Below, piece after piece: positions 8,670 to 43,181 of a stretch of DNA of 64,000 nt (its first letter is position 1; every line of letters starts with the position of its first letter). The notes below the pieces were generated by a model. The model was given only the letters and a program-made list of their open reading frames with translations, did not search any database and was not told the origin of the DNA. Both the position numbers and the translations under genes were made by a program. Source of the stretch: Escherichia coli (GTDB lineage: Bacteria; Pseudomonadota; Gammaproteobacteria; Enterobacterales; Enterobacteriaceae); NCBI RefSeq assembly GCF_045037415.1, contig NZ_CP173438.1, one strand, 5' to 3'.

Positions 8670-9705
8670 ATGAGCGATTCGTTTACTACGTCAGAACTGA
8701 TTACCGCGACACAGCAGGTATTTAAGTTCAATCCGTTGTTTTTAAAGCTGTTTTTCCGTGAGACCTACACGTTTACGAGCGAAGAGGTTTTTCTGGATAA
8801 AATCCCGGGAAAAGTGAACATGGCCGTGTACTGCGCGCCGATGATCACCGGCAAAGTTGACCGCACTCGCGGCTATTCAACGAACCATTTCAAACCGGGT
8901 TACACGAAACCCAAGCACACGATCAATCCGAATATGAGCATCAAGCGCGCAGCCGGTGAGCAGATTGGCCAGCCGGAAACGCCGGTCGAACGTCGTGCAA
9001 AAATCATCATGCAGAACCTGCTTGATGAGGAACTGAGCATCAGCCAGCTCGAAGAGTTCCAGGCGGTACAGGCTGTTCTGTACGGTAAATACACTGTTTC
9101 CGGCAGCAATATCGAGAACCTATGAGATCGACATGAGCCGCAGCGCGACGAATAACGTCACTCAGTCCGGTTCGACAGCCTGGTCGACTCAGGACGCGGA
9201 AACGTATGACCCGAGCGACGATATTGAATCCTACGCGGACCTCGCCTCCGGTGCGGTTAACGTGATCATCATGGATGGTAAAGCCTGGAAGCAGTTGAAG
9301 CGTTTTAAAAAATTCTGGACGGCACTGGATACGCGCCGTGGCTCAAACAGCCAGCTCGAGGTCGCGCTGAAAAACCTGGGCGACGTTGTCAGCTTTAAAG
9401 GCTACTACGGCGACACTGCGCTGTTTGTCTACAAAGGGCAATACCTCGACCCGGTAACAGACACTGAAACGCGTTATATGCCGGATAACACGATGATCCT
9501 TGGCAACACAAAAAACCGCGGGCTCCGCACTTATGGCGCAATTCAGGACGAAGACGCGCTGAAAGAGGGTATTTCCGAAGCGACGCGCTATCCAAAAGTC
9601 TGGACCACTACCGGTGATCCGGCAGTGACGCAAACAATGACGCAATCCGCGCCAGCAATGGTCCTCACGGACGCCGACGCGTTCGTTGTCGTAAAAATCG
9701 CGTAA
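8670..9705 (+). pseudogene. major capsid protein (lambda gpE-like) interrupted by +1 frameshift near 9115-9125; N part 8670..9125, C part in +1 frame to 9705
   Basis: Both ORF-track pieces (151 aa and 190 aa) align to consecutive parts of lambda E by recall; their start coordinates differ in frame (8670 vs 9133). Confidence 0.85.
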
Positions 9706-9739
9706 GAGTCGAAAGGCTCTTTTTTGTTAAGGAATCAAC

Positions 9740-10159
9740 ATGAGCACAAAAACAGAATTGCTGGCGCGTATTGACGATCTGAGCGCTCAGCTCGGTCGCG
9801 AATTACCGCGCAGCGGGACTATTGCGGAACTGGAATCAATCGTTGCCGGCGCTGAGTCAGAGCTCGATATTCTGAACGAGCAATCCGGTGACGCGGGAGG
9901 CATCGAGATTACAGTGAATACTGCGTCCGGGACCGATAATGAACTCGCTCAATCAATCGCGAGCGCTATCGTTTCACAGTCACAAGAGCAGGAGCTCGCA
10001 CCGGCTACGCGCCGCGTCAAGTTGCGTAACACGCTGGACGTTTATCACTACGTGAACGGGCGTCGCGTTCGCGAGATTGTTGCCGCAGGCCGTGAAATTG
10101 TTGTTGATTCACCGGAGGTCGCAGACCTTATCGCAGCTGATCACGTTTACGCTCTATGA
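9740..10159 (+). CDS. DNA-packaging / head completion protein (lambda FI-like)
   Basis: 139 aa, position after capsid gene, N-terminal pattern similar to lambda FI. Confidence 0.5.
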   Translation: MSTKTELLARIDDLSAQLGRELPRSGTIAELESIVAGAESELDILNEQSGDAGGIEITVNTASGTDNELAQSIASAIVSQSQEQELAPATRRVKLRNTLDVYHYVNGRRVREIVAAGREIVVDSPEVADLIAADHVYAL

Positions 10160-10536
10160 GCTACTACGATGACCTCCGGGCCGGCGACGAGGAGATGATC
10201 CGTGAGTGGGGACGGCCCGTTAAATTACGCGGTAAAACCGACCCCATTATCGCTATTTTCAACGAGCCTTACGCGCGCGTTGACGTTCCTCACGCTGGTT
10301 TTATTACCGGTACAGTAACGAGCCTGACGGCGCTCTCGGACGACGTCGCTGGCGTTGTTGCGCGTGACGTCGTCCAGGTTCCAAAGCAGCGCAGCATCGA
10401 ACCTGACGGCTCTGTTACCTGGTCTGGCTGGACCGATTACGTGGTTAAAGAGCCTCAACCTGATGGCACAGGGCTCACGAATATTTTTTTAGAGCCTCAC
10501 ACGTCCAGCGAAAACAGCGAGTATTCAAAATACTAA
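10156..10536 (+). CDS. head-tail connector / head completion (lambda FII-like)
   Basis: 126 aa, position. Confidence 0.45.
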   Translation: MSYYDDLRAGDEEMIREWGRPVKLRGKTDPIIAIFNEPYARVDVPHAGFITGTVTSLTALSDDVAGVVARDVVQVPKQRSIEPDGSVTWSGWTDYVVKEPQPDGTGLTNIFLEPHTSSENSEYSKY

Positions 10537-10567
10537 GTGGGACCTCGGTCCCACTTAAGGGGGAACC

Positions 10568-10948
10568 GTGGCCGATTTACGTAGTAACGCGCAGATGTTC
10601 GATATCGATGTTTCGGCGCTGGAGCAGCTCAGAGTCGAAATCAGCGCGACGCAACATCAAATGTTAATGGTATACAACAGGGCGCTGAACCGAACTGCAA
10701 AACATATGCACCGAATTTCAGCAGGAATGATTTTGACTGCACTGGCAGCTAAAAATCATAAGGCCGTAGATAAACGAATCAAGCCGTTCATTAAGCGCCG
10801 TAATTTTACAAAAGAAGGGGCAGGAGACCTGAGCAGCGCCAAGCTCTGGTACGGTCTGAATGATTTCCGGGTATCTGAGCTAAAGGGGCGATTACAAAAT
10901 CCACGGAGGCAAAAACAGCCTCGCGATCTTGAACCGGCCTGTTTTTGA
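10568..10948 (+). CDS. putative tail completion / virion morphogenesis protein
   Basis: ORF track; position between head and baseplate modules. Confidence 0.35.
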   Translation: MADLRSNAQMFDIDVSALEQLRVEISATQHQMLMVYNRALNRTAKHMHRISAGMILTALAAKNHKAVDKRIKPFIKRRNFTKEGAGDLSSAKLWYGLNDFRVSELKGRLQNPRRQKQPRDLEPACF

Positions 10949-11247
10949 AAACCAAAAAAGGCGCTAGAGGGGCAACTTTTACACCCAAAAGTGCAGGGCT
11001 GGCGATGATGAGTTGGCCCGATTCATTCGTAGCGAAACGCTACGGTGCGAAAAGTGTCTGGATTCGACTGGATCGCGGAGGAATCGAAGAGGCTCGCGTA
11101 CCTGTGCACGACGCGCTGGAGGATGCTATCGATGATTATATTTTTGAAAACATTGGCCCTGTTTTTATGGGCTTTTTTGAGAAAGATTTGCGCGGTCGCG
11201 TGAAAGGTAATGTCCACGTAGACCCAAAAACAGGTAAACGATTATGA
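10945..11247 (+). CDS. hypothetical phage protein (TTG start at 10945; alternative ATG at about 11005)
   Basis: ORF track; 4-nt overlap with upstream gene. Confidence 0.3.
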   Translation: MKTKKGARGATFTPKSAGLAMMSWPDSFVAKRYGAKSVWIRLDRGGIEEARVPVHDALEDAIDDYIFENIGPVFMGFFEKDLRGRVKGNVHVDPKTGKRL

Positions 11248-41131: not shown

Positions 41132-41158
41132 CCCGATGATCTGCGCATCGGGTTTTTT
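41132..41158 (+). terminator. intrinsic terminator after cheW
   Basis: CCCGATG-ATCTGCG-CATCGGG plus T6. Confidence 0.75.
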
Positions 41159-41189
41159 ATTTCAATTTCGCGGCGGGTGGCATCAGCAA

Positions 41190-41216
41190 TAAAGTTTCCC
41201 CCCTCCTTGCCGATAA
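41190..41216 (+). promoter_or_regulatory. sigma-28 (FliA) promoter of tar operon
   Basis: TAAAGTTT-N11-GCCGATAA perfect consensus. Confidence 0.8.
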
Positions 41217-41247
41217 CGAGATCAACTTGTTTTCAGGAAGGTGCCTT

Positions 41248-42909
41248 ATGATTAACCGTATCCGCGTAGTCACGCTGTTGGTAATGGTGCTGGGGGTATT
41301 CGCACTGTTACAGCTTATTTCCGGCAGTCTGTTTTTTTCTTCCCTTCACCATAGCCAGAAGAGCTTTGTGGTTTCCAATCAATTACGGGAACAGCAGAGC
41401 GAGCTGACGTCAACATGGGATTTAATGCTACAAACGCGCATTAACCTGAGTCGTTCAGCGGTGCGGATGATGATGGATTCATCCAATCAGCAAAGTAATG
41501 CCAAAGTTGAATTGCTCGATAGCGCCAGGAAAACATTGGCCCAGGCCGCGACTCATTATAAAAAATTCAAAAGCATGGCACCGTTACCTGAAATGGTCGC
41601 TACCAGTCGTAATATTGATGAAAAATATAAAAACTATCACACAGCGTTAACTGAACTGATTGATTATCTTGATTATGGCAATACTGGAGCTTATTTCGCT
41701 CAGCCAACCCAGGGAATGCAAAATGCAATGGGAGAAGCGTTTGCTCAGTACGCCCTCAGCAGTGAAAAACTGTATCGCGATATCGTCACTGACAACGCAG
41801 ATGATTACCGATTTGCCCAGTGGCAACTGGCGGTTATCGCGCTGGTGGTGGTATTGATTCTGCTGGCGGCGTGGTACGGCATTCGCCGTATGTTGCTTAC
41901 ACCGCTGGCAAAAATTATTGCGCATATTCGCGAAATTGCCGGTGGTAACCTGGCGAATACCCTGACCATTGACGGGCGCAGTGAAATGGGCGACCTGGCG
42001 CAGAGCGTTTCACATATGCAACGCTCTTTGACTGACACCGTCACTCATGTGCGCGAAGGTTCAGATGCCATCTATGCCGGTACCCGTGAAATTGCGGCGG
42101 GCAACACCGATCTTTCCTCCCGTACTGAACAGCAGGCATCCGCGCTGGAAGAAACTGCCGCCAGCATGGAGCAGCTCGCCGCGACAGTGAAGCAAAACGC
42201 CGATAACGCCCGCCAGGCCTCGCAACTGGCGCAAAGTGCCTCCGACACCGCCCAGCACGGCGGCAAAGTGGTGGATGGCGTAGTGAAAACGATGCATGAG
42301 ATCGCCGATAGTTCGAAGAAAATTGCCGACATTATCAGCGTTATCGATGGTATTGCCTTCCAGACTAATATCCTCGCGCTGAATGCCGCTGTTGAAGCCG
42401 CGCGAGCGGGTGAACAAGGCCGTGGTTTTGCCGTGGTGGCGGGCGAAGTGCGTAATCTTGCCAGTCGCAGCGCCCAGGCGGCAAAAGAGATCAAAGCCCT
42501 CATTGAAGACTCCGTCTCGCGCGTTGATACCGGTTCGGTGCTGGTCGAAAGCGCAGGGGAAACAATGAACAATATCGTCAATGCTGTCACTCGCGTGACT
42601 GACATTATGGGCGAGATTGCATCAGCATCGGATGAACAGAGTCGTGGCATCGATCAAGTCGCATTGGCGGTTTCGGAAATGGATCGCGTCACGCAACAGA
42701 ACGCATCGCTGGTGCAGGAATCAGCTGCCGCCGCAGCTGCGCTGGAAGAACAGGCGAGTCGTTTAACGCAAGCGGTTTCCGCGTTCCGTCTGGCAGCCAG
42801 CCCACTCACCAATAAACCGCAAACACCATCCCGTCCTGCCAGTGAGCAACCACCGGCACAGCCACGACTGCGAATTGCTGAACAAGATCCAAACTGGGAA
42901 ACATTTTGA
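41248..42909 (+). CDS. tar: methyl-accepting chemotaxis protein Tar (ends NWETF)
   Basis: [18 protein letters not shown]... 553 aa. Confidence 0.95.
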
Positions 42910-42954
42910 CGAGTATTTACTAAAGCGGTCATTGCCGCCTGATGGGGAGCGTTG

Positions 42955-43181
42955 ATGTTTAATCGTATTCGAATTTCGACCACGCTGTTTTTAATTTTGA
43001 TTCTCTGCGGGATCTTGCAGATTGGCAGTAACGGCATGTCTTTTGGGCATTTCGCGACGATTTGCAACGACTGAATCAGGCCGACCATCTTTCGTCGCGT
43101 GTGGCGGTATTTACCCTTGAAGAACATGAAGTAGCACGACATGAGTCGGCGCAGTTACAAATTGCGCCAGTGGTATCCTGA
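42955..43181 (+). pseudogene. tap: tap remnant: N-terminal about 30 codons and C-terminal about 45 codons of dipeptide chemoreceptor Tap, internal deletion plus 1-nt frameshift
   Basis: MFNRIRISTTLFLILILCGILQIGSNGMSF then frame break at T-run 43041-43044; whole tar-cheR gap is 290 bp. Confidence 0.8.

Follow-up and report, generated by a model that had tools for sequence, protein, structure and literature searches.

The analysis concerned a 64,000-nt segment of an Escherichia coli chromosome (NCBI RefSeq assembly GCF_045037415.1, contig NZ_CP173438.1; the window) in which four genes are broken by single-base length changes: the major capsid, tail-completion and tail-hub (gpD) genes of a prophage, and the chemoreceptor gene tap. 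The extra A in the capsid gene and the missing G in the tail-completion gene are read as consensus errors at methylated Eco31I-type sites, and the gpD and tap breaks as real lesions; the probability of this whole picture is put at about 0.85. The window was identified from its open reading frame (ORF) layout and from megablast as a chromosome segment of sequence type 131 (ST131; O25b:H4, phylogroup B2), ST131 genomes matching it at 100%. Megablast searches were run against 5,426 complete E. coli genomes, and the PacBio assembly of EC958 served as the main reference. The initial annotation had reported the capsid, gpD and tap breaks, and all three 1-nt length changes were found where it had placed them when each was checked against near-identical genomes; in speaking of all three breaks it had overlooked a fourth, the missing G at 10932/10933. 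The genes and breaks are listed below (m6A, N6-methyladenine).

8670..9705, plus strand: lambda-gpE-like major capsid gene, split into 8670..9125 and 9133..9705 by one extra A.
9114..9120, plus strand: GAGAACC in the capsid gene, judged a miscalled GAG(m6A)CC Eco31I/EcoMI motif; the extra A gives AA at 9117-9118.
10568..11247, plus strand: tail-completion/Neck1 gene, split into 10568..10948 and 10945..11247.
10931..10935, plus strand: GAACC in the tail-completion gene, judged a miscalled GAGACC; a G is missing between 10932 and 10933.
21006..22050, plus strand: P2-gpD-like tail/baseplate hub gene; an extra A gives AA at 21773-21774.
42955..43181, plus strand: tap remnant, 227 nt left of the original 1602, fixed in phylogroup B2.
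43041..43044, plus strand: run of four T (T4) in the tap remnant, T5 in the intact tap of K-12.
43073..43084, plus strand: tap deletion junction, where the 12-bp direct repeat GAATCAGGCCGA remains as one copy.

Alignment to EC958 covered 60,210 nt and gave 0 substitutions and two single-base indels, both inside GAGACC motifs. The 65-kb EC958 region holds 8 GAGACC/GGTCTC sites where about 32 would be expected from base composition; in the window they start at positions 5907, 7797, 7902, 8760, 9114, 10823, 10930 and 35700, and seven of the eight lie in prophage head/neck genes. Both differences between the window and EC958 thus fell within 48 nt of motif sequence, with none in the other 60,162 nt (Fisher exact p = 6e-7). 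At the capsid site the window reads ATCGAGAACCTATG and both SK1144 and EC958 read ATCGAGACCTATG (GAGACC), which is the sole difference in 1.6 kb; the extra A falls on the methylated adenine of the motif. With this base corrected, the capsid gene encodes 344 residues, of which residues 4-343 match phrog_6020, a major head protein family (E = 6e-140). The Prokaryotic Genome Annotation Pipeline (PGAP) marks the same capsid sequence as "frameshifted" in other assemblies. The tail-completion gene encodes 226 residues in EC958 (WP_000774516.1), and the repaired product of the window matches phrog_27 (E = 4.5e-43). Comparison with a second assembly or with related genomes had been proposed in the initial annotation as a check; it removed the capsid A, which is absent from EC958 and SK1144, and left standing the gpD and tap indels, which recur in hundreds of genomes.

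Of 430 genomes, 18 had the capsid insertion (origins: Poland, Taiwan, Thailand and the Esc series) and 409 the intact GAGACC. At site 10930, GAACC was found in 7 of 419 genomes, all of the Esc series (Esc5, 31, 29, 3, 8, 12 and 25), and Esc28 and Esc15 read GAGAACC there, so that within this series the call at 10930 is independent of that at the capsid site. Esc15 and Esc28 have chromosomes of 5,156,502 and 5,156,511 nt and are identical over 21.6 kb save that the capsid gene is intact in Esc15. A second prophage, integrated in yecE, served as a lineage marker; it is absent from EC958 and is found in 81 of the 5,426 complete genomes. It is present in the window and in A1.S1.126, and absent from 447, Esc28, UID2404240038 and UID2309220027. 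The capsid AA is found in genomes that have the yecE prophage and in genomes that lack it, and the capsid gene is intact in most genomes of either background, including most of the 81.

The remaining motif sites showed the same behaviour in other assemblies. In A1.S1.126, UID2404240038, UID2309220027, 447, Esc28 and 463, most of the differences from EC958 lay on these sites, with calls that were mutually discordant. The window itself is correct at the four sites listed here.

5907..5912: GGTCTC; read as GGTTTC in A1.S1.126 and 447, and as GGTCTCC in 463.
7797..7802: GGTCTC; read as GGTTCTC in A1.S1.126.
8760..8765: GAGACC within the capsid gene; read as GAAACC in three assemblies and as GAGAACC in 463.
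10823..10828: GAGACC; read as GAGAACC in 447, and as GAAACC in Esc28 and Esc15.

At site 10930 the calls across assemblies were GAGACC, GAGAACC, GAACC, GGAACC and a scrambled TTAGAACTGG. GAGACC read as GAAACC and its reverse complement GGTCTC read as GGTTTC are one type of error, and GAGACC read as GAGAACC and the corresponding GGTCTC read as GGTTCTC are a second. Strain 463 has a "frameshifted" capsid gene through site 8760 rather than 9114, and a "frameshifted" portal gene through 5907.

The capsid and tail-completion breaks are read as artefacts because of the coincidence with the motif, the discordant calls and the toggling between near-identical assemblies. The mechanism proposed is as follows. 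In ST131 the Eco31I-type methyltransferases M1/M2.EcoMI methylate the adenine of GAG(m6A)CC and, on the opposite strand, the cytosine of GGT(m5C)TC (m5C, 5-methylcytosine). The modified bases may distort the single-molecule (nanopore) signal, and a base-caller untrained on the motif would then insert, delete or substitute bases at or beside the modified position. Because such an error would recur in most reads, read-based polishing would leave it in place. The platform was probably nanopore, judging from the error pattern.

Published work supplies the parts of this mechanism. By single-molecule real-time (SMRT) kinetics in EC958, the adenines of GAG(m6A)CC were 100% modified by M1.EcoMI, which is identical to M1.Eco31I, and m5C on the complementary GGTCTC was predicted, via M2.EcoMI; RM.EcoMI is carried on GI-leuX and is lacking in clade B, and prophages are enriched in its motif (Forde et al. 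2015, PMC4659465). That type IIS system (RM.EcoMI = Eco31I) shares its recognition sequence with the window sites, and prophage enrichment is seen in both; the study described a methylome by PacBio kinetics and did not have base-calling consequences as its subject. Assemblies from native-DNA nanopore reads carry recurrent, motif-bound, lineage-specific errors due to modifications on which the base-caller was untrained; these errors are mostly A/G and C/T confusions, vary between replicates and resist read-based polishing (Dabernig-Heinz et al. 2024, PMC11610573; Chiou et al. 2023, PMC10687267). As in those studies, the window involves one short motif, a lineage-specific methyltransferase and inconsistent calls. 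Unlike there, the motif is GAGACC/GGTCTC (Eco31I type), and the lesions of the window are indels that make false pseudogenes.

Several points weigh against this explanation. That the platform was nanopore was deduced from the error pattern. The capsid site reads GAGAACC identically in all 18 assemblies, and identity by descent may account for part of this. That the Esc genomes are one strain was taken from near-equal chromosome lengths and regional identity, not from metadata. The locus of the EcoMI genes, GI-leuX, lies outside the window. Published modification errors are mostly substitutions and the two in the window are indels, although other assemblies do show substitutions at these very sites. 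A search of the literature library found no paper tying GAGACC to nanopore errors, and for GGTCTC with nanopore it returned only a paper on a motif-finding tool.

Real mutation at the two motif sites, as further decay of a tail-defective prophage in a small ST131 sub-lineage, was considered unlikely. It would account for one and the same capsid insertion in 18 assemblies of such different origin, and selection on the head genes should already be relaxed since a real inactivating mutation is present in gpD. It would also need motif coincidence, homoplasy and toggling within clones. Both changes sit in two of the eight methylated-motif sites with nothing else altered in 60 kb, it is precisely there that near-identical assemblies differ, and the state of one site is independent of that of the other. 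Carriers of the capsid AA are polyphyletic by the yecE prophage, and different lesions at these sites are seen in other assemblies, including the separate capsid frameshift in 463. The capsid insertion was also considered as an inherited mutation of a clade comprising the 18 genomes, and was dropped because the calls follow the motif and toggle between near-identical assemblies.

It is less likely again, and very improbable, that GAGACC/GGTCTC, with m6A and m5C on opposite strands, is truly hypermutable or heterogeneous in vivo and that the assemblies sample real sub-populations, through damage and repair at doubly methylated Eco31I sites or through restriction-driven loss of sites. Were this so, the capsid and tail-completion frames would toggle in vivo. 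The variation is indeed recurrent and strictly confined to the motif, and the motif is strongly depleted in the chromosome (by the count given above). Depletion of a motif is the usual long-term signature of restriction avoidance, which can explain it without hypermutation. All sites are intact in hundreds of ST131 genomes, as the count at the capsid site illustrates, and the kinds of variant seen are just those known from base-calling errors caused by modification. The depletion of the motif and its concentration in the prophage fit avoidance of restriction in the host chromosome and the over-representation of the motif in EC958 prophages.

The gpD break has a different distribution. The window reads GGACAAGG where Ecol_244, A42 and LCP30S3_I5, each with one 347-residue ORF, read GGACAGG; in the wider context the window has GCGGACAAGGTAG, and Ecol_244, A42 and a 95%-identical relative have GCGGACAGGTAG. 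The extra A truncates the product to 257 residues (21006..21779) and leaves the C-terminal 92 codons orphaned in the +1 frame. With the base corrected, the gene encodes a 347-residue gpD that matches phrog_52 over residues 6-347 (E = 2.7e-94) and Pfam PF05954 only weakly (E = 9e-5). In genomes that carry the 1054-nt allele a single ORF is found, with the annotation VgrG/Pvc8-family or late-control-D protein; for the intact allele of Ecol_244 the annotation is VgrG/Pvc8-family contractile injection system protein. Of the 432 genomes that bear the element, 363 matched exactly a 61-nt query with the AA at its centre, and 69 differed. Both alleles occur among neighbouring accessions, Ecol_244 being intact and Ecol_276, 542, 656 and 867 carrying AA, and independently deposited prophage records from the UK show the same split gpD. 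Over 41 kb, Ecol_244 differs from the window by 3 further single-nucleotide polymorphisms (SNPs) and 2 further indels, and EC958, which has the AA, differs from it at no non-motif position. The lesion therefore tracks lineage, because the intact Ecol_244 carries other changes and the AA-bearing EC958 none outside the motifs. In a published table of all 15 single-base indel discrepancies between the PacBio and 454 assemblies of EC958, gpD and the tap remnant have no entry. The change from A to AA in gpD is judged a real single-base duplication that arose within the ST131 radiation and became fixed in its dominant lineage.

Since the tail/baseplate hub loses its last 90 residues, the prophage would, going by the biology of P2, be unable to assemble tails and is probably defective. 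This resembles the decay of cryptic or defective prophages in that a single-base frameshift in a structural gene, in a prophage that otherwise looks complete, has been fixed in a clone. Compared with a typical decayed P2-type prophage, that of the window is a hybrid, its head lambda-like and its contractile tail P2-like, and its defectiveness is deduced from the gene.

The tap break is a real, old and known lesion, inherited by essentially all B2 strains. In addition to the shortening of T5 to T4, 1374 bp (458 codons, in frame) have been deleted between the 12-bp direct repeats GAATCAGG(T/C)CGA. Two BLAST segments were obtained against K-12, with the repeat copies at subject positions 229-240 and 1603-1614, which correspond to about 120-131 and 1494-1505 in K-12 tap coordinates. 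Because of the deletion, tap is inactive whatever the length of the T-run; when the T was restored in silico, the product was still only a 75-residue remnant. A 901-nt query spanning tar, the remnant and cheR aligned without interruption in 1058 genomes, and in 1054 of these the identity was at least 99%. With the T-run at its centre, a 61-nt query was exact in 1039 genomes, all annotated as a remnant; the other 4338 carry T5 together with an annotated tap gene. The T4 run and the deletion co-occur in about 1040-1058 of the 5,426 genomes (B2), including non-ST131 strains such as ATCC 25922, and PGAP labels the EC958 copy "frameshifted; incomplete". As cited by others, Lane in 2006 and Borziak in 2013 reportedly found Tap to be lost in uropathogenic strains. 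In the later literature, loss of Tap in uropathogenic/B2 E. coli is treated as established (PMC3559539, PMC12623472). The published loss and that of the window agree in the locus, between tar and cheR, and in tap being non-functional in B2 strains. Tap is described as "completely lost" in a recent paper, and here a 227-nt remnant persists in about 1050 genomes. The structure of this remnant, a direct-repeat deletion of 1374 bp plus the change from T5 to T4, was resolved here.

The initial annotation had placed all three of its breaks at short homopolymers and had suspected sequencing errors of homopolymer length, a reading on which the genes would be intact in the organism. A run of about 4-5 or more identical bases, the setting of such errors in 454, Ion Torrent or older nanopore data, is present only at the tap break; at the capsid and gpD breaks a single A became AA. 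Each of these three is a 1-nt length change beside an identical base, and the capsid break does appear artefactual. Homopolymer error nevertheless accounts for none of the three breaks and, as a reading of all three, is extremely unlikely. The step from A to AA has no homopolymer context, and run extension is uninformative because 44% of random 1-nt insertions into the window sequence would lengthen a run and so look alike. Positions 1..60210 contain 333 homopolymer runs of at least 5 nt, including 21 of at least 7 nt, and all are identical to those of EC958; the window assembly is therefore not prone to homopolymer errors. Independent confirmation of the indels, which the initial annotation had named as evidence against sequencing error, was found for gpD and tap, whose indels recur in 363 and 1039 complete genomes from many projects. 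The EC958 PacBio and 454 assemblies agree at both sites, tap additionally lacks 1374 bp, and the intact gpD allele co-varies with other substitutions. For gpD and tap, homopolymer error is thus refuted by the population data. The caution that the pseudogene calls were provisional was warranted for the capsid gene, through a methylated motif, and did not hold for gpD and tap, whose lesions are genuine.

A true homopolymer length difference was seen in assemblies other than the window. A tract of seven G (G7) in the tape-measure gene (19493..19499) is intact in the window, EC958, Ecol_244, Esc28 and Esc15. It is G6 in A1.S1.126, UID2404240038, UID2309220027 and 447, and PGAP gives two fragments there (WP_244557696.1 and WP_244557695.1).

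Also extremely unlikely is a programmed +1 ribosomal frameshift at ACA-AGG-TAG by which full-length gpD would still be made: a rare AGG codon does stand directly before the stop at the break, a setting that in other genes can promote +1 shifts, but close relatives have a single uninterrupted gpD ORF that differs by this base alone, which marks a derived lesion, neither ACA nor AGG in the P site could, from the sequence, re-pair in the +1 frame (CAA, GGT), and no Shine-Dalgarno-like stimulator is evident upstream of the break. Programmed frameshifting at gpD was rejected on the single-ORF relatives and the lack of codon re-pairing. A two-ORF arrangement was found in relatives for none of the capsid, gpD and tail-completion genes, each of which is a single ORF.

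Local context of the "short homopolymer" kind cannot separate a real pseudogene from an artefact, and comparisons across the population and against the motif can. The real lesions accord with known biology, namely the loss of the Tap chemoreceptor in B2 and a clone-wide frameshift in the tail hub of a probably defective prophage. In public complete ST131 genomes, false "frameshifted" pseudogenes appear to arise from the Eco31I-type motif, and among the assemblies examined the capsid, portal and tail-completion genes of this prophage were hit. Because the motif is concentrated in prophages, estimates of prophage decay would be inflated, and distances from cgMLST (multilocus sequence typing of the core genome) or SNPs would be distorted. 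The components are all of known kinds (B2 tap loss, decay of a prophage by frameshift in a structural gene, and modification-induced long-read errors). The only element not found in the literature is the link between GAGACC/GGTCTC and false ST131 pseudogenes, which is a point of curation and no new biological system.

The public "complete" ST131 genomes A1.S1.126, 463 and 447 carry further PGAP "frameshifted" calls, in the portal, S49 peptidase, sheath and TIGR02594 family genes. Where examined, these lay at GGTCTC/GAGACC sites, at a Dcm CCAGG site or at long homopolymers. They are likely assembly errors that were propagated into RefSeq.

The other features of the window are as follows.

1 to about 22,700: prophage late region next to yecA, with a lambda-like head module and a P2-like contractile tail module.
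60211..64000: second prophage, in yecE, with an integrase ORF (60229..61542, minus strand) followed by excisionase and DUF4222 genes.

The head module of the first prophage comprises terminase, gpW, portal, S49 protease, decoration protein and the gpE-like capsid genes, and its tail module comprises baseplate V/W/J/I, fibre, sheath, tube, gpE-like chaperone, tape measure, gpU, gpX and gpD. Beyond the prophage the gene order is yecA, tyrP, ftnA/B, araFGH, otsBA, flhDC, motAB, cheAW, tar and the tap remnant, followed by cheRBYZ, flhBAE, argS, cutC, torYZ and cmoAB, a stretch that includes the flagellar and chemotaxis genes. In the phage collection, only predicted-prophage records of the window's own element were found (one including the host yecA), with no diverged intact relative among them. 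A tRNA search near the prophage end (22000..23200) found none.

Downstream of the gpE-like tail assembly chaperone (18161..18442), another frame stays open (18400..18550) until the start of the tape-measure gene. No canonical slippery heptamer was identified around 18400..18550. The layout of the two frames is that expected of the conserved gpE/gpE+E' programmed frameshift in P2-like tails. Between gpD and yecA lies a 139-residue ORF with a lipoprotein-like signal peptide (22217..22636; hypothetical protein WP_001296152.1), which may be a cargo gene.

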